Assembly: GCA_035700025.1 (NCBI GenBank)
Contig: DASSOY010000072.1
Span: 80,771 to 144,770 of the forward strand
Length of the DNA stretch: 64,000 bases
Reading direction: 5' to 3'
Origin: Bacillales bacterium
Lineage (GTDB): Bacteria; Bacillota; Bacilli; Bacillales; DASSOY01
Part shown: piece by piece, positions 2,973 through 57,301 of the stretch
How positions within the stretch are numbered: the stretch's first letter is position 1
Layout of the letters: the number at the start of each line of letters is the position of its first letter
The notes under the pieces: generated by a model
Databases searched by the model: none
What the model was told of the DNA's origin: nothing
Seen by the model: the letters and a program-made list of their open reading frames with translations, nothing else
Made by a program: the position numbers and the translations under genes

Positions 2973-4001
2973 ATGAGTGATCGTAAAGCAGCGTTGGATC
3001 AAGCTTTGAATAAAATTGAGAAACAGTTCGGAAAAGGGTCGATCATGAAGCTCGGAGAACAGGCGGACCGCCGCGTATCAGCCATTTCGAGCGGCTCTCT
3101 TACGCTTGACGTGGCGCTCGGTGTCGGCGGATATCCGCGCGGACGCATCGTCGAGATTTACGGGCCGGAATCATCAGGGAAAACGACGGTCGCCTTGCAT
3201 GCGATCGCTGAAGTGCAAAAGAACGGCGGGCAAGCGGCATTTATTGACGCGGAACATGCGCTCGATCCCGTTTATGCGGAGAAGTTAGGCGTCGACACGA
3301 ATGAATTGCTGCTCTCGCAGCCGGATACCGGCGAGCAAGCGCTCGAAATTGCCGAAGCGTTGGTGCGGAGCGGAGCCGTTGACATCATTGTCGTCGACTC
3401 GGTTGCAGCGCTCGTGCCGCGGGCGGAAATCGAAGGAGAAATGGGCGATTCGCACGTCGGTCTGCAGGCGCGGCTTATGTCGCAGGCGCTTAGGAAACTG
3501 TCCGGCGCGATCAGCAAGTCAAATACGATTGCGATGTTCATCAACCAAATTCGCGAAAAAGTCGGCGTTATGTTCGGGAATCCGGAAACGACGCCAGGGG
3601 GACGAGCCTTGAAGTTTTACTCGTCGGTGCGGCTTGAAGTGCGCCGTGCGGAAACGTTGAAACAAGGCGATGAAATGGTCGGCAGCCGTACACGAATCAA
3701 AATTGTGAAAAACAAAGTGGCGCCGCCGTTCAAAAAATGCGAGGTCGACATCATGTATGGTGAAGGCATTTCCAAAGAAGGCGAAATGCTTGATATTGGG
3801 GCGGCTGAGGATATCGTTCAAAAAAGCGGAGCCTGGTATTCCTATGATGGCGAGCGGCTCGGCCAAGGAAGAGAAAACGCAAAGCAATATTTAAAGGAAA
3901 ATGGAGAAATCGCCGAACAAATTCGCAAGCAAATCCGGCAACATTATCATCTGGAAACGCCGGTACAAGAAGAACCCGCACAGGAAGATCCAGTTTCATG
4001 A
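2973..4001 (+). CDS. recA: Recombinase RecA
   Basis: Walker [23 protein letters not shown] and [28 protein letters not shown]; RBS GAGGAG. Confidence 0.97.
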
Positions 4002-4004
4002 GCG

Positions 4005-4034
4005 AAAAACACCCGCAAGGGTGTTTTTCTTTTG
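4005..4034 (+). terminator. Rho-independent terminator of recA
   Basis: AAAAACACCC-GCAA-GGGTGTTTTT followed by CTTTTG. Confidence 0.8.
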
Positions 4035-4212
4035 CCGCAAAGTCTCTTGCCTTGTCTTGACATTGACCGACCGGAAAGCTTACAATTAAATCGTATATTT
4101 TTGATTTCATTTGAAATTAAAAGTTTACTTTATTCAGTGCTGTATATGAAAGATTGCAGTTACAAAGGTACAGTTGGAAATGCAACCGCAGATAGCAAGA
4201 GGAGGTGACAGT

Positions 4213-5778
4213 ATGGCTGGTATGTCTGTTCTCATCTCCACTTTGCTTGTCTCGTTAGTTGTCGGTGTGCTGGTTGGATACTTTATAAGAAGATCCATTG
4301 CTGAAGCGAAATTGTCCAGTGCGGAACATGCAGCGCAACAGATAATTGAAGAAGGAAAGCGCGCGGCTGATGCAGCCAAGAAGGAAGCGCTTCTGGAGGC
4401 GAAAGACGAAATTCATACGCTTCGGACGGAAGCCGAGAATGAAATTCGTGAACGCAGAGCGGAACTTCAAAAACAGGAGAATCGTCTTGTTCAAAAGGAA
4501 GAGATTCTTGATCGAAGAAGCGAAACCTTGGACAAGAAGGAAGAAACGGTCGACAAGAAGGAGGATTCTCTGGCCAAAAAAGAACGACAAATTGAAGAGA
4601 TGAAAAGCAAAGTGGAACAAATGATGCAGAAGCAGGAAAACGAGCTTGTGCGAATTTCCAGTTTGACGAAAGAAGAAGCACGCGAGATTATTTTTGAACA
4701 AGTTCGCCGGGAAACTGAACATGAAACGGCGATGATGGCCAAGGAAATCGAGTCGCGTGCGAAAGAGGACGCCGACAAGAAAGCGAGAGGGATTTTGTCG
4801 ACGGCATTGCAACGCTGTGCTGCCGATCATGTAGCGGAAACGACCGTTTCCGTCGTCAACTTGCCGAATGATGAGATGAAGGGCCGCATTATTGGCCGCG
4901 AAGGTCGCAACATTCGCACGTTGGAAACATTGACAGGCATTGACCTGATTATTGACGACACGCCCGAAGCCGTCATTCTGTCCGGATTTGACCCGATCCG
5001 CCGCGAGATTGCGCGCGTTTCGTTAGAGAAACTCGTCCAGGACGGACGGATTCATCCGGCGAGAATTGAGGAGACGGTGGAACGTTCCCGCCGCGAAGTG
5101 GATGAAGCCATTCGCGAGTATGGGGAGCAAACGACGTTTGAGGTCGGCATCCACGGACTTCATCCGGACTTGATGAAAATATTGGGACGGTTGAAATTTC
5201 GTACAAGCTACGGCCAAAACGTGTTGAAACATTCGATGGAAGTCGCTTATCTGACTGGATTAATGGCGGCCGAACTCGGCGAAGACGAGCAGTTGGCGCG
5301 CCGCGCCGGTCTTCTGCACGATATCGGGAAAGCCATTGATCATGAAGTGGAAGGCAGCCATGTCGAAATCGGCGTTGAACTTGCCACGAAGTACAAAGAA
5401 CATCCGGTCGTCATCAACAGTATTGCCTCGCACCATGGCGACACGGAATCGACGTCGGTGATCTCGACGCTTGTTGCCGCGGCAGATGCTTTGTCGGCCG
5501 CGCGTCCGGGAGCGAGAAGAGAAACGCTGGAGACGTACATTCGCCGTCTCGAAAAGCTTGAAGAAATCTCGGAATCGTTCGAAGGCGTCGAGAAATCGTT
5601 CGCGATTCAAGCCGGCCGTGAAATTCGCATCATGGTGCAGCCGGATAAGGTCGACGACACGGAATCTTATCGTCTCGCCCGCGAAATTACAAAGAAAATC
5701 GAGAACGAATTGAATTATCCGGGTCATATCAAAATCACGGTCATTCGTGAAACGAGGGCCGTCGAATATGCTAAATAA
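4213..5778 (+). CDS. rny: Ribonuclease Y (TM anchor, coiled coil, KH and HD domains)
   Basis: ATG 4213 follows GGAGGTG by 5 nt. The N-terminal TM segment is followed by a Lys/Glu-rich coiled coil. KH region [15 protein letters not shown] and HD motif LLHDIGKA are present. Confidence 0.93.
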
Positions 5779-5807
5779 AGTGGTTGATCGACCACTTTAT
5801 TTTTTTT
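5775..5807 (+). terminator. Rho-independent terminator of rny
   Basis: Perfect 10 bp stem ATAAAGTGGT/ACCACTTTAT with loop TGATCG and a T7 run. The rny TAA lies in the 5' arm. Confidence 0.85.
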
Positions 5808-5850
5808 GGTACAATAAACATAAACCATTCATGAATGTTAGGAGATTTCG

Positions 5851-6645
5851 ATGAAAGTATTATTTATCGGCGACGTCGTCGGACGTCCGGGAAGAAGAAT
5901 CTTAGATGATTATTTGCCGAAACTGAAACAGAAATATCAACCGACGTTGACGATCGTCAACGGTGAAAATGCTGCGGGCGGGAAAGGCATCACTGAAACC
6001 ATTTATAAAAAATTTCTCGATCTCGGTGCGCAAGTCGTCACGCTTGGCAATCATGTGTGGGACAACCGTGAAGTTTTCGAATTTATTGACGATGCTCCGT
6101 GGCTGATCCGACCTGCCAATTTCCCTTCCGGTACCCCGGGGAAAGGCTTAACCTTCGTCAAAATTAACGATGTTCAAGTTGCCGTCGTTAATTTGCAAGG
6201 AAGGACGTTCATGGCGCCGCTTGAATCCCCCTTCACGACGGCTGATGCGCTCATTGAGCAAGCCCGCAAGAAAACGCCGATTGTCATCGTCGATTTTCAC
6301 GCCGAAACGACGAGCGAGAAACAAGCGCTCGGTTGGTATTTAGACGGCCGCGTTACGGCGGTGATCGGTACGCATACGCACGTGCAAACGGCCGATGAAC
6401 GAATCCTTCCGAAAGGCACAGCTTATTTGTCCGATGCGGGAATGACGGGTCCGCGCGACGGCATTATCGGGATGGACCGCGACGCGGTCATGAAGAAATT
6501 CCTCACCCATTTGCCCGTGCGTTTTGAAGTGGCCTCCGGGAGGGAGCAGTTAAACGGTGTGTTGATCGAGGTTGATCGATCGTCCGGAACGGCAAAATCG
6601 ATTCAACGCATTGCGATTACCGATGAACAACCTTTTTTTGAATAA
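5851..6645 (+). CDS. ymdB: YmdB-family metallophosphoesterase (2',3'-cyclic-nucleotide 2'-phosphodiesterase)
   Basis: MKVLFIGDVVGRPGRR, NGENAAGGKGIT, DFHAETTSEK and GTHTHVQTADERILP. It lies directly after rny, as in B. subtilis. Confidence 0.9.
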   Translation: MKVLFIGDVVGRPGRRILDDYLPKLKQKYQPTLTIVNGENAAGGKGITETIYKKFLDLGAQVVTLGNHVWDNREVFEFIDDAPWLIRPANFPSGTPGKGLTFVKINDVQVAVVNLQGRTFMAPLESPFTTADALIEQARKKTPIVIVDFHAETTSEKQALGWYLDGRVTAVIGTHTHVQTADERILPKGTAYLSDAGMTGPRDGIIGMDRDAVMKKFLTHLPVRFEVASGREQLNGVLIEVDRSSGTAKSIQRIAITDEQPFFE

Positions 6646-43478: not shown

Positions 43479-43575
43479 TGGCGGGACCGTGTGGGAATCG
43501 AACCCACCGGAGACGGCACGCGCCTCCCGCAGGGCTTTGAAGGCCCGGGGGGACACCAGCACCCCAGCCGGCCCC
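43479..43575 (-). tRNA. selC: tRNA-Sec (anticodon UCA)
   Basis: The minus strand reads GGGGCCGGCTGGGGTGCTGGTGTCCCCCCGGGCCTTCAAAGCCCTGCGGGAGGCGCGTGCCGTCTCCGGTGGGTTCGATTCCCACACGGTCCCGCCA. Anticodon loop is CTTCAAA (TCA is the complement of 43538-43540). Extra arm is a 7 bp stem, GGAGGCG/CGTCTCC. T arm is GTGGG-TTCGATT-CCCAC. The long acceptor stem ends in encoded CCA. Total length 97 nt. Confidence 0.88.
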
Positions 43576-43646: not shown

Positions 43647-43682
43647 GCCGATACAAACATGGGAAACGCGGAGGTGTCGGAT

Positions 43683-45599
43683 GTGAAGCACTATACGGTC
43701 GGCATGGCGGGGCATATTGATCACGGGAAAACGGCGTTGACGAAGGCTTTGACCGGCGTCGACACCGATCGATTGAAAGCGGAAAAAGAACGAGGCGTAT
43801 CGATTGAGCCGGGGTACGCCCGACTCGATTTGGATGAGGAAATGCAAGTTTCGATCATTGACGTGCCGGGCCATGAACGTTTTATTCGACAAATGATCGC
43901 CGGGGTGGCCGGCATTGATCTCGTTGTTCTCGTCGTGGCAGCCGATGAAGGCGTGATGCCGCAAACGGAAGAACATTTGGAAATCTTGACTTATCTCGGC
44001 GTCGAAAACGGCATCGTCGTGATCACGAAATGCGAGAAGGCCGATGAGGAGATTCTCGAGCTCGTGAAAGAGGACGTCCGAGAAACGTTAAGCGACTGCT
44101 CATTGGCGGAAGCCGAAATCGTGTGCGTGGACAGCCTGTCCGGACGCGGCATGGCGACGTTGAAACAGCTGTTTCGAAAAAAACTGCCCGGAGTGGCGCC
44201 GCGAAAAAGGCAAGGGCCGTTGCGTCTGCCGATTGATCAAGTGTTTACGATCCACGGTCAAGGAACGATCGTGCGCGGCACGATCGTCGAGGGGACGGTA
44301 AAGGAAGGAGAAACGTTGACGGTCTATCCCGAAAGGCAGTCGGTACGCGTACGGCAAATTCAAGTGCAGCATGAACGGGTGAAACAGGCCGGCGCCGGAC
44401 AGCGGGCAGCGATCAACGTTAGCGGCTTGTCTAAGCAAGAGCTGCATCGCGGCGACGTGTTGGTCGGTTCGGACGCTGATTGGACGACGAAGCGACTCGA
44501 TGTGAAGGTAACCGCTTCCCGCAAGCTGCGACACCACGTGAAGCAACGAGCCCCGATTCGCCTTCATATCGGCACCGCACAGGCGAAAGGGAAGATGGTT
44601 TTTTTCGACCGAAAACAGTTGGAAGCCGGGGAAGAAGCTTACGTTCAGCTGCAGTTGGAAGAGCCGATTGTCGCTGTGAATGGCGATCGTTTCATCATAA
44701 GGCGGCCGACACCGGCGGAAACGATTGGCGGCGGGAAAGTCATCGAAGCGAAAGCGGAGAAACACCGGTTTGGCGAAGAAACGATCCAACGATTGAAAAA
44801 GAGAAGTGAAGGTACGCTGGAAGAAGCGGTGCTTGATCGGTTTGAACAGGAAGGCGCCCTCGCGGAACAGCAGATCTCCGATGCGTTTCGGGTGTATGGC
44901 GAACCGCTGAAGCAGCTGTTGGCAACGCTGCATGAGCGCGGGGTGATTCGGTTGATCGGTGATGGTCAATGGGTGTACCGACGTGCGTTCGATGAAGTCC
45001 AAAACGACATGATTGACCAATTGAAAGACTATCATGAACGATATCCGTTGCGCCGCGGCATTGAGAAAGCGGAAATGCTCAACCGTTTGAAAGGATCGGA
45101 AACGGTGAAGGAAGCGGCTCTTGAAGCGCTCGTTGCGAGCGAACGCGTGAACAGGCACGGACCTGTATTGGCATTGGCGGCGTTCGTGCCGGCAATGCCG
45201 AAAGCTTTCGAAAAACGATTGAAGCGGTTGACGGCGGAAATGGAGGAAGCGGGGCTCGAAGTCGATCATTGGCAGGCGCTCGTCGAGATGCACGGCCTGC
45301 CGGAAACGGTCGCCGCGGATTTTCGTGCGTTTTTGCTGGAGCAAAACAAGGCGGTGAAGCTCGGTGACTTTGCGTTAGTTCACCGGGAGGCGTTCCGTTC
45401 TGCGGTGCGTCGTTTATTCGAACATACCGGCGGGGCCCCGTTTGATGTGAAAACGGCGAAAGCGGCGCTTGACGTATCACGCAAATATTTGATTCCGCTT
45501 CTTGAGCGAATGGACGCGATGCAAATGACCGTTCGCACCGGAAATGAACGAAAATGGATCGATCGCGGTGTGCGCGGTTGGCTGAAACGAGAAAACTGA
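43683..45599 (+). CDS. selB: Selenocysteine-specific translation elongation factor SelB
   Basis: GTG 43683 is 6 nt after GGAGGTG. (M)KHYTVGMAGHIDHGKTALTKALTG, DVPGHERF and VITKCE are the GTPase motifs. An EF-Tu-like domain II/III follows, then a roughly 280 aa C-terminal extension of the kind that binds SECIS. The ORF-track start at 43464 runs across the tRNA-Sec gene. Confidence 0.92.
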   Translation: MKHYTVGMAGHIDHGKTALTKALTGVDTDRLKAEKERGVSIEPGYARLDLDEEMQVSIIDVPGHERFIRQMIAGVAGIDLVVLVVAADEGVMPQTEEHLEILTYLGVENGIVVITKCEKADEEILELVKEDVRETLSDCSLAEAEIVCVDSLSGRGMATLKQLFRKKLPGVAPRKRQGPLRLPIDQVFTIHGQGTIVRGTIVEGTVKEGETLTVYPERQSVRVRQIQVQHERVKQAGAGQRAAINVSGLSKQELHRGDVLVGSDADWTTKRLDVKVTASRKLRHHVKQRAPIRLHIGTAQAKGKMVFFDRKQLEAGEEAYVQLQLEEPIVAVNGDRFIIRRPTPAETIGGGKVIEAKAEKHRFGEETIQRLKKRSEGTLEEAVLDRFEQEGALAEQQISDAFRVYGEPLKQLLATLHERGVIRLIGDGQWVYRRAFDEVQNDMIDQLKDYHERYPLRRGIEKAEMLNRLKGSETVKEAALEALVASERVNRHGPVLALAAFVPAMPKAFEKRLKRLTAEMEEAGLEVDHWQALVEMHGLPETVAADFRAFLLEQNKAVKLGDFALVHREAFRSAVRRLFEHTGGAPFDVKTAKAALDVSRKYLIPLLERMDAMQMTVRTGNERKWIDRGVRGWLKREN

Positions 45600-45620
45600 C
45601 GGGCATTCCCGTCAGTTTTT
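45596..45620. terminator. Bidirectional terminator shared by convergent selB and selD
   Basis: CTGACGGG-CATT-CCCGTCAG, flanked by AAAA and TTTTT. The selB TGA (45597-45599) and the selD TGA (complement of 45612-45614) lie in opposite arms. Confidence 0.8.
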
Positions 45621-46658
45621 CACGGTCAACGTGTGCGGTCCCGCTTTCACGACTTCGCCGATGATTGCCGTATCGCCGCTGCCCGCCGCTTTCATTGCTT
45701 TCACATAAGTTTCCGCTGCCCGCCGCGGCAGGCTGACGAGCAACCCGCCGGACGTGACTGCGTCGCAAAGGATCCATTGCATCACTTCGTCGATATCGTC
45801 CGCGTAGGCTACGTCATTTTTTAACCATGCGTGGTTTTTCTTTGTGCCGCCCGGCACTTGCTTTAATTCCGCCAACACGCGCGTCCCTTCGAGAACGGGG
45901 ATGCTGCCGGCATCGATGATGAAACTGACGCCGCTTCCTTTCGCCATCTCGCACGCGTGGCCAAGCAAGCCGAAGCCGGTGACGTCCGTCACGGCATGCA
46001 CATCTACGCCTTTTAACAACCTTGCGGCATCCGCGTTCAACGTCGTCATCACGTCCGTGACTTTATTCAACCGGTCCGCGTTCAGTTTTCCATTTTTCAA
46101 AGCCGTTGTCTGAATGCCGACGCCGATCGGCTTCGTCAGGACGAGTACATCGCCTTCTTTCGCTCCGACGTTTCGGTGAAAGCGTTCCGGATGGACGATC
46201 CCTGTCACCGACAGCCCGAACTTCGGTTCCTGATCATCGATCGAGTGGCCGCCGACGACGACTGCGCCAGCTTCTTCTACTTTTATCGCCGATCCTTGCA
46301 AAATGTCCAGCAATATAGACTCGTCCAACTGCTTGATCGGAAATCCGACGAGATTGAGTGCCGTTTTCGGTTCGCCGCCCATTGCGTAAACGTCGCTTAG
46401 TGCATTGGCGGCGGCGATCTGCCCGAATGTGTACGGGTCATCGACGATCGGCGTAAAGAAATCGACCGTTTGGATGAGGGCAATCTCGCCGCTGATTTTG
46501 TAAACGCCGGCATCGTCGCTCGTCTCGGTTCCGACAAGAAGATTCGGGTCTTTCGTTGTCTTCGGAAGGTGACGCAAAACTTGCGTCAAATCGCTCGGTG
46601 CGATTTTGCAGCCTCAACCGCCTTTCGAGCTCAACGTCGTCAATCGGATGTTCGCCAT
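45612..46658 (-). CDS. selD: Selenide, water dikinase SelD, itself a selenoprotein (Sec15 encoded by TGA)
   Basis: Upstream of ORF 45612..46589 the same frame reads ATG(46658) A N I R L T T L S S K G G TGA G C K I A P S D L T Q V L R H L. This is the SelD N-terminal motif G-[C/U]-G-C-K with TGA (complement of 46614-46616) at the catalytic Cys/Sec position. RBS GGTGAGG. Total 348 codons. AIR-synthase-like body (DDAGVY, DFFTPIVDDP). Confidence 0.9.
46571..46587 (-). promoter_or_regulatory. Candidate bacterial SECIS hairpin of selD
   Basis: mRNA UGACGCA-AGUUU-UGCGUCA (7 bp stem). The core GACGCAAGUUUUGCGUC given by these coordinates starts 26 nt after the UGA, and the flanking U-A pair lies just outside them. 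The loop G lies about 34 nt from the UGA. Confidence 0.6.
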
Positions 46659-46694
46659 CGTTGCCTCACCGCCTTTTCGTTAATCTCCATGCTC

Positions 46695-46723
46695 ATCTTA
46701 TTTTCTCACGAACAAACCGTCAA
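46695..46723 (-). promoter_or_regulatory. Candidate sigma-A promoter of selD
   Basis: On the minus strand: TTGACG, 17 nt spacer, TAAGAT, about 35 nt upstream of the selD ATG. Confidence 0.4.
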
Positions 46724-46754
46724 ATTCAATTGCGGAGGCAACGGTTTCATATTT

Positions 46755-46783
46755 TTTACGCAACAAGACGGGTATTATACAAT
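46755..46783 (+). promoter_or_regulatory. Candidate sigma-A promoter of the selW-like/selA/trxB-like unit
   Basis: TTTACG (46755-46760), 17 nt spacer, TACAAT (46778-46783). Confidence 0.5.
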
Positions 46784-46807
46784 AGAAAGAAAAAGGAGGG
46801 ATGCTCT

Positions 46808-47059
46808 GTGAAGTATCATGTGTCGATCGAATTTTGCATGCAATGAAACTACGCGCCAAAAGCCGCGAGTTTCGCGGAACAGTTATTCACTCATTATCGG
46901 GGGCAGTCGAACAGCATCGAACGGATCGAGCTGATCCCCGGTTCCGGAGGCGCCTTCGAAGTCAAGGTCAACGGGAAGCTGTTGTATTCAAAATACGAGA
47001 CGGGCGTGTTCCCGGAAGCCGAAAAGGTAATCAAGCAGATGGAGGCGATTGCCGGCTAA
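46808..47059 (+). CDS. SelW/Rdx-family selenoprotein (CxxU redox motif; Sec13 encoded by TGA)
   Basis: GTG 46808 is 8 nt after AAGGAGG. The frame reads (M)KYHVSIEFCMQ-TGA-NYAPKAASFAEQLFTHYRGQSNSIERIELIPGSGGAFEVKVNGKLLYSKYETGVFPEAEKVIKQMEAIAG, then TAA at 47057-47059. The TGA at 46844-46846 completes a C-M-Q-U motif, and LIPGSGGAFEV and LYSK..TG.FPE are typical of bacterial SelW-like proteins. The ORF track shows only fragments (46556..46846 and an out-of-frame 46801..47088). Confidence 0.85.
46863..46877 (+). promoter_or_regulatory. Candidate bacterial SECIS hairpin of the selW-like gene
   Basis: CCGCG-AGUUU-CGCGG starts 16 nt after the UGA, with the loop G about 23 nt from the UGA. The loop is the same as in the selD hairpin. 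Confidence 0.6.
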
Positions 47060-47084
47060 TCGCGATCCCCGTATGGAGGAAGAT

Positions 47085-48488
47085 ATGAATCGATTAATGC
47101 GCATGCTGCCTGCCGTGCACGTTTTGCAGGAACATCCAAAATTCAATGAATGGGCACAGCGTTTCGAGATTTCCGAGACATTTTTGACAGAGGAGCTGCG
47201 CGCGGAACTTCAACAACTGCGCGAAGCTTTATTGGCCGGAACGTGGAAAGGCGAACCGACGGCTGAAGCGTTGACGGCGCATCTTTTCGAAAAATTGGCC
47301 GAGCGGCTCGAGTCGTATCGTGCGAACAAGCTGACGCCGGTGATCAACGGCACCGGTGTCGTCCTCCATACGAATTTAGGGAGGGCCAGGTTGAGCGACG
47401 AGGCTGTACAGGCGGTCACGAGAGCGGCGGTGAATTACTCGAGTTTGGAGTTCAATCGTGAAACAGGAAAGCGCGGGTCGCGCCACGATCTTGTTGAACC
47501 GTATGTTTGCCGGTTGACTGGCGCGGAAGCGGCCATGGTCGTGAACAATAACGCGGCTGCGGTTTTTCTTGTTTTGTCGGCTTTGGCTTCAGATCGCAAA
47601 GTGATCGTTTCGCGTGGTCAACTCGTCGAAATCGGCGGATCTTTTCGCGTGTCTTCGATCATGGAGGAAAGCGGCGCGCTGCTCGTAGAAGTAGGCACGA
47701 CGAATAAGACGCGATTGCATGACTACGAGGAAGCGGTCGATGAAGAAACCGCGATGATTATGAAAGTACATACGAGTAATTTCACGATTCGCGGGTTCAC
47801 GGAAACCGTGGATACCGCCCCGTTGGCAAAATTGGCCGCCGATCGCGAATGCGTTTATTACGAAGATCTCGGGAGCGGAGCGATTTACGATTTCCGCGCA
47901 GAAGGCATCGGGAAAGAGCCGCTCGTTGCTGAAGTGCTCGCGAAAGGCGCAGATCTCGTTTCGTTCAGCGGCGACAAGCTTTTCGGCGGCCCGCAAGCGG
48001 GGATTATCGCTGGAAAAAAACAGCTAATCGAGCGGTTGAAGAAGCATCAATTGGCCCGTGTTCTGCGTGTTGATAAAATGACTTTGGCCGCGCTCGAGGC
48101 AACGATGAAAGCTTATCTATTCGGAAAAGCGCAAACAACGATTCCGGTCATCCGCGATATGACCGCTACTGTTGCCGACATCCGTGCGCGTGCAGAACGA
48201 TTTGTTTCGTACGCCAATCGTACCGTTCCAGCGTTTCGGTTCGCTGTAAGAGAAGAAACGTCCAAGGTCGGGGGCGGGACAATGCCGGATGTCGCTTTGC
48301 CAACTTGCGGCGTCACCATTGTACATCCGCAATGGACAACGCAAATGGTTTTGGATCACTTGCGAAGTCACGAACCACCTGTGATCGGCCGCGTCGCCTC
48401 CGAAAAAGCGTTCCTCGATTTTCGAACGATTCGCGAAGACGAGTGCGAATCGGTATTGTCGGCGCTTCGCGAACCCGTCGATCAATAG
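47085..48488 (+). CDS. selA: L-seryl-tRNA(Sec) selenium transferase SelA
   Basis: ATG 47085 follows GGAGGA. MNRLMRMLPAVHVLQ, NNNAAAVFL and the PLP-lysine context SFSGDKLFGGPQAGIIAGKK. Confidence 0.92.
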   Translation: MNRLMRMLPAVHVLQEHPKFNEWAQRFEISETFLTEELRAELQQLREALLAGTWKGEPTAEALTAHLFEKLAERLESYRANKLTPVINGTGVVLHTNLGRARLSDEAVQAVTRAAVNYSSLEFNRETGKRGSRHDLVEPYVCRLTGAEAAMVVNNNAAAVFLVLSALASDRKVIVSRGQLVEIGGSFRVSSIMEESGALLVEVGTTNKTRLHDYEEAVDEETAMIMKVHTSNFTIRGFTETVDTAPLAKLAADRECVYYEDLGSGAIYDFRAEGIGKEPLVAEVLAKGADLVSFSGDKLFGGPQAGIIAGKKQLIERLKKHQLARVLRVDKMTLAALEATMKAYLFGKAQTTIPVIRDMTATVADIRARAERFVSYANRTVPAFRFAVREETSKVGGGTMPDVALPTCGVTIVHPQWTTQMVLDHLRSHEPPVIGRVASEKAFLDFRTIREDECESVLSALREPVDQ

Positions 48489-48558
48489 AGGCCGTTTTAC
48501 TTCACGGCCGTTGAGGGAATATTATGGAGAAGAACGACGAACCGAGGAGGTATGGCGA

Positions 48559-49518
48559 ATGTACAAAACGATCGTCGTCGGAACTGGACCGGCGGGCTTG
48601 ACGGCGGCCATTTACTTGGCACGCGCCGATATGGCCCCGCTCGTCATCGAAGGACCGGAACCGGGCGGGCAACTGACGCTCACGACTGAAGTAGAGAACT
48701 TTCCGGGCTTTCCCGACGGCATCATGGGTCCGGCATTGATGGATGACATGAGAAAACAAGCTGAGCGTTTCGGCGCGACGTTCGAAAGAGGTTATGTGAA
48801 ATCCGTCGATTTTTCAAACAAACCGTTTTCGCTGACGGTTGATTCGCTCGGGACGTTTGAAGGGGAGTCGGTGATTATTTCTACCGGCGCATCGGCAAAA
48901 ATGCTCGGCGTTCCGGGAGAGAGTGAAAACGTCGGCAAAGGCGTCAGCACGTGCGCGACATGTGACGGCTTCTTTTTTCGCGGCAAAAAAATTGTTGTCG
49001 TCGGCGGTGGCGATTCGGCGATGGAGGAAGCAACGTTTTTGACGAAATTCGCTTCCGAAGTGACGGTCATTCATCGCCGCGACGAGCTGCGCGCGTCGAA
49101 AATCATGCAAAATCGGGCGAAGGAAAACGAAAAAATTAAATGGAAGCTGAACGCGCAAGTGAAGGAAATTTTGGCGGATAACGGGAAAGTGAGTGCCGTT
49201 CAATTGGTGAATCAGAACGGCGTCGAAGAAACGTTAGCCACCGACGGCGTTTTCATTGCGATCGGTCATACGCCGAACACGGAGTTCTTGAAAGGGCAGG
49301 TCGGGATGGATGATAAAGGTTATTTGAACGTGAAACCGGGAACGACGGAAACGACGGTTGACGGGGTGTTTGCCTGCGGAGACGTACAAGATTTCACGTA
49401 CCGTCAAGCGATCACGGCGGCCGGAACCGGTTGCATGGCGGCGATGGATTGCCAGCGTTATCTCGAGGGAAACGCGTTCACGGACTGGAGCCTAAGCACG
49501 GATCAAGCAAAAAAATAA
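48559..49518 (+). CDS. trxB: Thioredoxin-disulfide reductase (low-Mr TrxB type)
   Basis: ATG 48559 is 8 nt after GAGGAGG. VVGTGPAGLTAAIYLAR, redox centre CATCDG, GGGDSAMEEA and GVFACGDV. It lies 70 nt after selA on the same strand, with no intervening terminator seen. Confidence 0.9.
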   Translation: MYKTIVVGTGPAGLTAAIYLARADMAPLVIEGPEPGGQLTLTTEVENFPGFPDGIMGPALMDDMRKQAERFGATFERGYVKSVDFSNKPFSLTVDSLGTFEGESVIISTGASAKMLGVPGESENVGKGVSTCATCDGFFFRGKKIVVVGGGDSAMEEATFLTKFASEVTVIHRRDELRASKIMQNRAKENEKIKWKLNAQVKEILADNGKVSAVQLVNQNGVEETLATDGVFIAIGHTPNTEFLKGQVGMDDKGYLNVKPGTTETTVDGVFACGDVQDFTYRQAITAAGTGCMAAMDCQRYLEGNAFTDWSLSTDQAKK

Positions 49519-49526
49519 AGTCGCGG

Positions 49527-49560
49527 CGTTCTTTTCCATTCGGAAGAGAACGTTTTTTTT
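49527..49560 (+). terminator. Rho-independent terminator after trxB
   Basis: CGTTCTTTTCC-ATTC-GGAAGAGAACG followed by T8. Confidence 0.85.
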
Positions 49561-55836: not shown

Positions 55837-55884
55837 TGCCTGCGCTGCCGACGCTATACAATGGCAAACGAAGGGAGTGTCACG

Positions 55885-56961
55885 GTGAGACGTTTGTATT
55901 TAGTCGGGGCGGGCCACGCCCACCTGTATGTGCTGAACCGGCTGCGGCGCGAGAGGCTTCCGGGGGTTGAAGTATCGCTTCTTACGCCGGAAACGGTGAA
56001 ATTCAGCAGGGAAATGGCTGCCGGTTATATCGAAGGTTTATATACGAAAGCACAAATGGGTTTGGATATTGGGGAGCTGGCGAAACAGGCCGGTGCGAAT
56101 CATATAAAAGCTGCGGTGATGTCGATCGATCCACTGCAGAAAGCGGTTTTAACCGAAAAAGGCGGGTACCTCGAATACGATGTCATTTCTTTCGACATCG
56201 GGGCGTTGACGGAAGCGACGGATCTCCCGGGCGTATTGACGGCCGCCGAAATGCTGCGGCCGAATGAAAAGCTTCCGGACGCGCTGGACCGGCTGATTGC
56301 GGCGGAGCAGCTCGTGATCGCCGGCGACGGAGATGCTTGTGCGGAAATTGCGTTCGCCTTGCAGGCGAGGAGAATGAAGGAAGGAAAGACACCGGTTCGT
56401 TGGATCGGTGGATTCAACAAAGGCACCGCTTTCCGCGCGTTTCCTCCTGATGCTGAGCAATGGGCGCAGGATGCCGGCATTTTGCTGCATAAAAATAGTC
56501 GAGTACGGCGGGCAGGAGGCGGAAAGCTGGAGACGGACAACGGCGCCGTCCACTTGTACGATCGATTGCTCTGGATTTATCCGCCGCGCCCTCACAAGTT
56601 GTTTCGTGCGGCACTCCCTGTGGACAGCGACGGGTATTTGCTCGTCGAAAAGACGTTGCAAGTGAAGTCGTTTCCTTCCGTCTTTGGAGCTGGTGACTGC
56701 ATCACAGTGAACCGGCATTCCCATATTGCGCATGAGGGACGGTATGCGGTAGACGAAGGGCCGGTGTTATGGAAAAATTTGCGCGGTTATTTCACGGACG
56801 GAGAAGGCCGAACTTTCGCACCGGCGAATGCCGCGTATTGTTTTTCGACGGGAAACAAGCAAGCGGTGTTGCGTCGGAAGCGAAAGGTGATTCGAGCCGG
56901 TTGGGTGCATCGGTTGAAAAGTTACGTCGACCGCACGTACGTAAAAAAATCTTCTCCGTAG
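55885..56961 (+). CDS. FAD-dependent pyridine nucleotide-disulfide oxidoreductase family protein (GAGHAH type, of the kind found fused or adjacent to SelD)
   Basis: GTG 55885 is 7 nt after GGGAG. (M)RRLYLVGAGHAHLYVL is the Rossmann start, followed by a second dinucleotide fold LVIAGDGDACAEIAFAL and the C-terminal FGAGDC. Confidence 0.8.
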   Translation: MRRLYLVGAGHAHLYVLNRLRRERLPGVEVSLLTPETVKFSREMAAGYIEGLYTKAQMGLDIGELAKQAGANHIKAAVMSIDPLQKAVLTEKGGYLEYDVISFDIGALTEATDLPGVLTAAEMLRPNEKLPDALDRLIAAEQLVIAGDGDACAEIAFALQARRMKEGKTPVRWIGGFNKGTAFRAFPPDAEQWAQDAGILLHKNSRVRRAGGGKLETDNGAVHLYDRLLWIYPPRPHKLFRAALPVDSDGYLLVEKTLQVKSFPSVFGAGDCITVNRHSHIAHEGRYAVDEGPVLWKNLRGYFTDGEGRTFAPANAAYCFSTGNKQAVLRRKRKVIRAGWVHRLKSYVDRTYVKKSSP

Positions 56962-56980: not shown

Positions 56981-57301
56981 TTACACCGTTTCGAGGAAAT
57001 TTCTTACTTGATCCGGTGTTTTCGCATTAGCGCTGTGCAAATGGGCGATTTTTTTCCCGTCCTTAAAAACGAGCAAACTCGGAATCCCTAACACTTCATA
57101 CGTTTCGGCAAGTTCGGGAAATTCGTCGCGGTTGACTTCATACCATTTTTTATCATCATAATCGTTCACGATGTCGCCGATGAACATGTCCATGCGGCGG
57201 CAATCCGGGCACCAGCCGGCCTCGAATTTCATGATCGTTTCTTGGTCGCTTTCAATCAGCTGCCGAAATTGTTCGACAGACGTTACTTTTTCCAAAGTCA
57301 T
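56981..57301 (-). CDS. Thioredoxin-family protein
   Basis: 106 aa. WCPDC active site and GIPSLLVFKDGK. Confidence 0.88.
   Translation of the reverse strand: MTLEKVTSVEQFRQLIESDQETIMKFEAGWCPDCRRMDMFIGDIVNDYDDKKWYEVNRDEFPELAETYEVLGIPSLLVFKDGKKIAHLHSANAKTPDQVRNFLETV

Follow-up and report, generated by a model that had tools for sequence, protein, structure and literature searches.

A gene for a SelW-like selenoprotein between selD and selA of a Bacillales bacterium

A gene for a SelW-like selenoprotein is located between selD and selA in the DNA of a metagenome-assembled Bacillales bacterium, where it is missed by ORF calling. Within the 64,000-nucleotide stretch that we analyzed (hereafter the window), positions 46808-47059 of the forward strand are best read, with a probability that we put at about 0.9, as encoding an 83-residue protein of ~9 kDa that would receive its selenocysteine (Sec) by means of SelB and an RNA hairpin, and that has a putative redox role. 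The gene belongs to a well-known family. What it adds is modest, namely a constant place on the selA side among Bacillales and a SECIS model for these organisms that is supported by covariation.

A reading frame that continues through TGA

The initial annotation of this region, made from the sequence only, had proposed a ribosome-binding site, a GTG start, an in-frame TGA, a TAA stop and a length of 83 codons for the gene, and every one of these assignments matches the sequence. The elements of the gene and of its 5′ region are as follows.

46808..47059, + strand: gene for the SelW-like selenoprotein of the Rdx family, 83 sense codons and a TAA, carrying C10-M-Q-U13 (translation, Pfam Rdx, TIGR02174)
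46844..46846, + strand: in-frame TGA, selenocysteine, residue 13 (TGA at the aligned codon in homologous loci)
46793..46799, + strand: ribosome-binding site AAGGAGG, read from the sequence, followed by an 8-nt spacer and the GTG at 46808-46810
46755..46783, + strand: promoter-like site TTTACG-17-TACAAT, 9 of 12 matches in a consensus scan (pattern match only)

The frame translates as VKYHVSIEFCMQ-TGA-NYAPKAASFAEQLF...IELIPGSGGAFEVKVNGKLLYSKYETGVFPE...IAG-TAA, with the TAA at 47057-47059. Its single in-frame TGA is codon 13, in the context F-C-M-Q-TGA-N-Y-A-P-K. In an alignment with homologues, the GTG at 46808 coincides with their ATG starts. The promoter-like site falls within the divergent intergenic region that separates selD from the SelW-like gene, on the 5′ side of the latter.

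A mechanical list of open reading frames contains only two entries at this location, a 96-aa frame closed by the TGA (46556-46846) and, out of frame with the gene, an ORF of 95 aa (46801-47088). The gene is indeed invisible in such a track, as had been noted when it was first proposed.

Membership in the Rdx family

The initial annotation had assigned the product to the SelW/Rdx-like CxxU proteins and had suggested a profile search with the Sec position filled. When the TGA codon is translated as Cys, two family profiles recognize the whole protein above their curated thresholds, Pfam Rdx (PF10262, formerly PF05169) with 76.6 bits (cut-off 22.6) and TIGR02174 (CXXU_selWTH) with 62.6 bits (cut-off 34.2). 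The 70 residues located 3′ of the TGA reach 53.8 bits on Pfam Rdx by themselves, indicating that the frame is beyond chance. A third profile, the NCBIfam equivalog NF041051 (SelTWH_Campy), gives 82 bits where 88 are required, and the protein is therefore a relative of that narrow subfamily and not a member of it.

Six solved bacterial SelW-related proteins (3dex, 2ojl, 2p0g, 2fa8, 2obk and 2oka) match the window protein by sequence with E values from 5e-10 to 5e-7. Their CTQC or CRQC motifs align with C10-M-Q-U13, such that U13 takes the position of the second Cys of CxxC. These proteins carry the redox motif at the same position and, as judged through the model described below, share the same fold, although they have Cys in place of Sec, are ~20 residues longer and are 29-42% identical to the window protein.

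The fold was examined by proxy, using the AlphaFold model of a Cys-containing homologue (P0002) that is 66% identical to the window protein. This model has a pLDDT of 91.7 and the element order beta-alpha-beta-beta-beta-alpha-alpha, with the first Cys closing strand 1 and helix 1 beginning five residues on. In Foldseek comparisons it superimposes on 2oka, 2fa8, 2obk, 3dex and 2p0g with TM scores of 0.86-0.89 and rmsd values of 1.3-1.9 Å, while the TM score is 0.72 with mouse SelW and ~0.5-0.6 with thioredoxins. By this proxy, the window protein is predicted to have the thioredoxin-like beta-alpha-beta-beta-beta-alpha fold of the Rdx family. Both the profile scores and the fold proxy agree with the family assignment. 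Together with the homologue comparison, the hairpin and the neighboring Sec machinery described below, they support a SelW/Rdx-like CxxU selenoprotein overlooked by ORF calling.

Conservation of the TGA codon and of the frame around it

A genome scan in which each species was represented by a single genome yielded 80 loci, 58 of them from Bacillales (including Virgibacillus, Aquibacillus, Sediminibacillus, Rossellomorea, Planococcus and Halobacillus) and 22 from Poribacteria MAGs. Five additional loci reached through SelA extend the collection to 85 (63 Bacillales and 22 Poribacteria). A TGA occupies the aligned codon in 80 of the 80 scan loci and in each of the five SelA-anchored loci, and hence in 85 of 85 representatives from two phyla.

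The protein is conserved both before and after the TGA in the alignment of homologous loci. Among the 18 codons that follow the TGA in Bacillales, the variable columns number 5, 6 and 17 at codon positions 1, 2 and 3, respectively. Such a concentration of variation at third positions is the signature of a frame that is translated and constrained. Two database homologues, P0001 and P0002, have Cys at the Sec position (CMQC), and eight others, P0003-P0010, have W, presumably because the TGA was read as Trp.

Conservation on both sides of the codon, with Cys-containing homologues included, had been put forward in the initial annotation as a check on the gene, and both sides are in fact kept, with P0001 and P0002 supplying the Cys forms. 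Homologues that end at the TGA, or that lose conservation downstream of it, would have argued against the gene; none were seen, and the frame runs intact past the TGA found at every locus.

Some individual loci depart from the general pattern. The copies in Virgibacillus ndiopensis (L042) and V. oceani (L055), at ~6001-6240 of their loci, read FRMQ-TGA, wherein Arg replaces the first Cys of CxxU. Both also have SRGAFG for SGGAFE in a conserved motif, and selA is displaced by 1.3-1.8 kb. These two copies may be losing function. At ~4678-6000 of the Sediminibacillus massiliensis locus (L013), a second, partial SelW-like N-terminus continues through an unknown base (X) into selB-like sequence, and this partial copy looks like an assembly artefact.

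A conserved hairpin downstream of the UGA

Bacterial SECIS elements have a small apical loop that contains G (PMC1088965). A stem-loop with these properties, including a G in its small loop, is present shortly after the UGA of the SelW-like gene.

46863..46877, + strand: SECIS hairpin CCGCG-AGUUU-CGCGG, stem beginning 16 nt 3′ of the UGA (covariation, RNAalifold)

Among 72 distinct sequences, 95% of the cells in this hairpin are paired. The loop-closing pair is unbroken in all 72 (GC in 29, AU in 25, CG in 18). Bacillales have CG, UA or UG as the second pair. The observed covariation score was not attained in any of 500 shuffles, controls in which the register was slid collapse to 20-55% paired, and RNAalifold recovers the same helix. 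A relative from Mesobacillus has the loop GGUCU, again with a compensated stem. These compensatory changes support the assignment of the hairpin as a SECIS. Counting against it are the stem of only 5 bp and an Rfam search of the region, which matched no SECIS or other RNA family to the hairpin.

The minimum-free-energy hairpin of the window RNA, which pairs the GA of the UGA, was rejected because the homologues show no covariation for it and break many of its pairs. The window supplies independent support for the SECIS. Its 64 kb contain three hairpins that have five or more pairs and an AGTTT loop, versus 0.9 expected, and two of the three follow Sec codons. One such hairpin, at 2163-2177, is a chance match inside an intact 422-aa ORF of the cinA type that has no in-frame TGA. 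A scan of the window for other TGA-interrupted frames with G-containing hairpins uncovered no further selenoprotein gene; its other candidates (for example, at 56375) are terminators or are located inside longer ORFs of another frame.

Selenocysteine machinery near the gene

Genes for the complete set of selA, selB, selC and selD are located within 4 kb of the SelW-like gene, and all score above curated cut-offs.

43479..43575, - strand: selC, tRNA-Sec with anticodon UCA (ARAGORN; Rfam RF01852 58.2 bits versus a gathering score of 47)
43659..45599, + strand: selB, Sec-specific elongation factor (TIGR00475 367.8 bits versus a cut-off of 242)
45612..46658, - strand: selD, selenophosphate synthetase, Sec-containing (TIGR00476 412 bits; translation)
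47085..48488, + strand: selA, selenocysteine synthase (TIGR00474 555.9 bits), 25 nt after the SelW-like gene

The selD gene is interrupted by a Sec codon of its own. It reads MANIRLTTLSSKGG-U-GCKIAP (GG-U-GCK), with the TGA at 46614-46616, and the ORF list gives only the part that follows this codon. The TGA is kept in all 25 of the relatives matched. A hairpin at 46570-46588, TGACGCA-AGUUU-UGCGUCA, has a 7-bp stem that starts 25 nt after the selD UGA and carries the same AGUUU loop as the hairpin of the SelW-like gene.

Farther along the window, at a distance of ~7 kb from the sel cluster, is a gene for a pyridine nucleotide-disulfide oxidoreductase of 366 aa (55861-56961, + strand). Its product scores 185.6 bits on TIGR03169 ('Nterm_to_SelD'), under the cut-off of 310, and it is adjoined by a WCPDC thioredoxin-like gene (56981-57301, - strand). 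A link between this pair and selenium metabolism is possible.

Alternative readings of the TGA

If the TGA were a genuine stop, the locus would hold either a 12-codon leader or a dead gene, and the similarity downstream would be a decaying remnant. Standard ORF calling does stop at the TGA, the public records for L082, L083 and L085 have a post-TGA fragment or no call at all, and the L042 and L055 copies with Arg for the first Cys are possibly in decay. However, the TGA is kept at this codon in all 85 loci, which span two phyla, and the frame behind it is intact and varies mainly at third positions. The covariation of the hairpin and the intact Sec machinery also stand against a stop. The comparative data already contradict this reading, which we consider extremely improbable.

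The codon might instead be read as Trp or Cys, by a change of the code or by near-cognate read-through. The W residues at the Sec position of P0003-P0010 could be taken to favor this, but the best explanation for them is gene calling with a table in which TGA is Trp. The window itself uses the standard code, since table 11 leaves its long genes (selA, selB, acnA and others) intact, with no internal TGA. Moreover, alignment pairs the TGA position with the catalytic Cys of CxxC and not with a Trp, and tRNA-Sec, SelB and the SECIS hairpin are all present. We attach almost no weight to decoding as Trp or Cys, and read the TGA as a Sec codon.

Arrangement of the locus

Two additional elements lie downstream of selA.

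48559..49518, + strand: trxB-like thioredoxin-disulfide reductase gene, CATC active site (TIGR01292 392.3 bits versus a cut-off of 343)
49525..49554, + strand: intrinsic-terminator-like hairpin after trxB, 13-bp stem plus T run (consensus scan)

The SelW-like gene had been described as ending 25 nt before selA, and this spacing is borne out by the positions of its stop codon and of the selA ATG at 47085. A further 70 nt separate selA from trxB, and the hairpin at 49525-49554 is the only strong terminator-like element 3′ of the SelW-like gene. The short gaps, and a sole strong terminator that follows trxB, make it plausible that the SelW-like gene, selA and trxB are transcribed together.

The place next to selA is constant among Bacillales. 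In the 58 Bacillales loci of the scan, all of which were found through the SelW-like protein itself, selA is downstream on the same strand without exception, at a distance of no more than 150 nt in 23 loci and no more than 1 kb in 55. The upstream neighbor is either selD on the opposite strand (32 of 58) or selB on the same strand (26 of 58). In a separate sample anchored on SelA (n=6), a TGA-containing gene is present between selD and selA in five loci. The Desertibacillus haloalkaliphilus locus (L086) has divergent selD and selA genes with 250 nt of non-coding DNA between them (3749-4001) and no SelW-like gene, revealing that not every sel locus of Bacillales contains the gene. We found no description of a SelW-like gene placed beside selA in bacilli in the searchable literature, which is not proof that the arrangement is undescribed.

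The 22 TGA-bearing homologues of Poribacteria have no sel genes within 6 kb. These copies stand alone beside lpx genes, and their neighborhoods offer no hint of function.

The initial annotation had also viewed the selenoprotein, its synthase and the disulfide reductase as one unit. Their adjacency holds in the window and in its two nearest relatives (L081 and L082, both MAGs, with 61% identity for SelA, 80% for TrxB and 88% for AcnA), which are the only loci to have a trxB-like gene between selA and acnA. Wider conservation does not hold, as TrxB is absent within 6 kb of the SelW-like gene in the 58 other Bacillales loci, where small spore-protein genes and then aconitase are found instead. 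We therefore rejected trxB as a conserved partner. Its retention in the closest relatives only argues weakly for a reductase in one unit, the selenoprotein-selA-trxB arrangement is lineage-specific at best, and the link to trxB may reflect only local synteny with sspP and acnA.

G+C content across 44000-49000, which spans the sel cluster, is 0.51-0.565 compared to 0.45-0.51 in the flanks. This difference fits insertion of the cluster upstream of an ancestral sspP/acnA region that is seen in relatives. In L082, the space that separates selD from the SelW-like gene is filled by an 83-nt tandem repeat (3938-4279; 4.1 copies, 94% matches). A repeat of this type is absent from the same place in the window.

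Proposed mechanism

The anatomy of the gene suggests that translation would begin at GTG 46808 and that the UGA at 46844 would be bypassed as a stop. As in established bacterial Sec decoding, SelB carrying Sec-tRNA(Sec) would bind CCGCG-AGUUU-CGCGG within the coding sequence and insert Sec. The Sec-tRNA would be made by SelA from selenophosphate that SelD supplies, and the UGA of selD would require the same recoding. In the resulting protein, Cys10 and Sec13 would be located where strand 1 ends and helix 1 starts in a thioredoxin-like beta-alpha-beta fold. By analogy with the family, the two residues most probably alternate between the selenol/thiol state and a selenenylsulfide, as would befit a thiol-dependent oxidoreductase. 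The thioredoxin system would be the most likely reductant, a bacillus being without glutathione. The analysis thus demonstrates the gene and its family, the Sec codon, the conserved hairpin, the complete machinery and the conserved position in the sel locus, whereas we infer that selenium is actually inserted, and also infer the redox cycle, its reductant and the substrate. We likewise view the protein as a putative oxidoreductase reduced by the thioredoxin system, with adjacency to TrxB confined to the window, L081 and L082.

A different role has to be weighed against a general redox function. The SelW-like protein might be a working part of selenium supply, for example by carrying or reducing selenium species for SelD, or by recycling the Sec/Cys active site of SelD. 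Such a role would explain why the gene is retained inside the sel locus, flanked by selD or selB on one side and by selA on the other in all 58 Bacillales loci found through the protein, and likewise present in five of the six loci found through SelA. The SelD proteins of the same loci contain Sec, and one of the solved relatives, 2obk, bears the name 'putative Se binding protein', although this is the depositor's label only. On the other hand, the 22 Poribacteria homologues also have the TGA and yet have no sel genes nearby, and one Desertibacillus sel locus lacks the SelW-like gene. It is also awkward for a component of the machinery to need that machinery itself. Moreover, a sel cluster joined to a client gene is known for formate dehydrogenase, where the client is outside of the machinery (PMC5029168). 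A part in selenium supply therefore seems unlikely to us, and a redox protein with Sec at its active site remains the preferred reading.

A more speculative proposal, to which we give a low but slightly better chance, concerns the aerobic, mostly halophilic Bacillales. In these organisms the SelW-like protein could be either a fixed part of the sel locus that handles selenium, supplying or recycling it for the Sec-containing SelD, or else the sole selenoprotein outside of the machinery, such that four genes and a tRNA would be kept essentially for one 9-kDa protein.

Comparison with known selenoproteins and sel clusters

Mammalian selenoprotein W (2npb) has the CxxU motif, the thioredoxin-like fold and the Rdx membership of the window protein, but is distant from it, with an E value of 0.03 and a TM score of 0.72 for the mouse protein. 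The mammalian protein is made with a eukaryotic SECIS in the 3′ UTR, in contrast to the hairpin inside the coding sequence here. It also binds glutathione, which bacilli do not have.

Much closer are the SelW-like selenoproteins of prokaryotes. These share with the window protein the family HMM, a CxxU motif after strand 1 and a length of ~80 aa, and their genes share the in-frame UGA and a downstream hairpin with G in the apical loop. Sec forms outnumber Cys forms in this group (PMC1088965, PMC1794560, PMC2398784). There is no difference at the protein level, and the fixed place beside selA in Bacillales is an added detail. Descriptions of the SelW-like CxxU proteins as one of the most abundant selenoprotein families of prokaryotes go back to 2005, and they are an established family with few Cys forms (PMC1088965, PMC1794560, PMC2398784, PMC9312934). 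A count from 2006 gave three selenoprotein families and three proteins for Bacillales (PMC1794560), a census from 2016 recorded SelW-like proteins in 35 sequenced bacteria (PMC5029168), and a review from 2022 includes SelW-like proteins, giving their Pfam family as Rdx and their motif as CxxU (PMC9312934).

Formate dehydrogenase genes that reside beside selA, selB and selD offer a precedent for the cluster, as machinery and selenoprotein gene are close together or in one operon, as here (PMC5029168). The client in those clusters is FdhA, whereas in the window it is the SelW-like protein.

Implications

The current understanding of selenoproteins is unchanged by this gene, which would not surprise a specialist, and its practical value is for annotation. 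Public records for the gene in L081-L085 comprise two full-length proteins (81 and 78 residues), two post-TGA fragments (52 and 42 residues, assigned to Pfam Rdx) and one case in which the gene is not called. The case thus illustrates the way in which annotation can miss or shorten small selenoprotein genes. The conserved hairpin with an A-G-U-U-U or G-G-U-C-U loop provides a concrete SECIS model for Bacillales that could serve to find further selenoprotein genes.

The constant position on the selA side also makes culturable bacilli, including Virgibacillus, Planococcus, Rossellomorea and others, convenient for studies of SelW-like function. If either part of the proposal made above for aerobic Bacillales were true, whether a place for the protein in the handling of selenium or its standing as the only selenoprotein outside of the machinery, it would provide the first functional handle on the SelW-like family, from bacteria to mammals.
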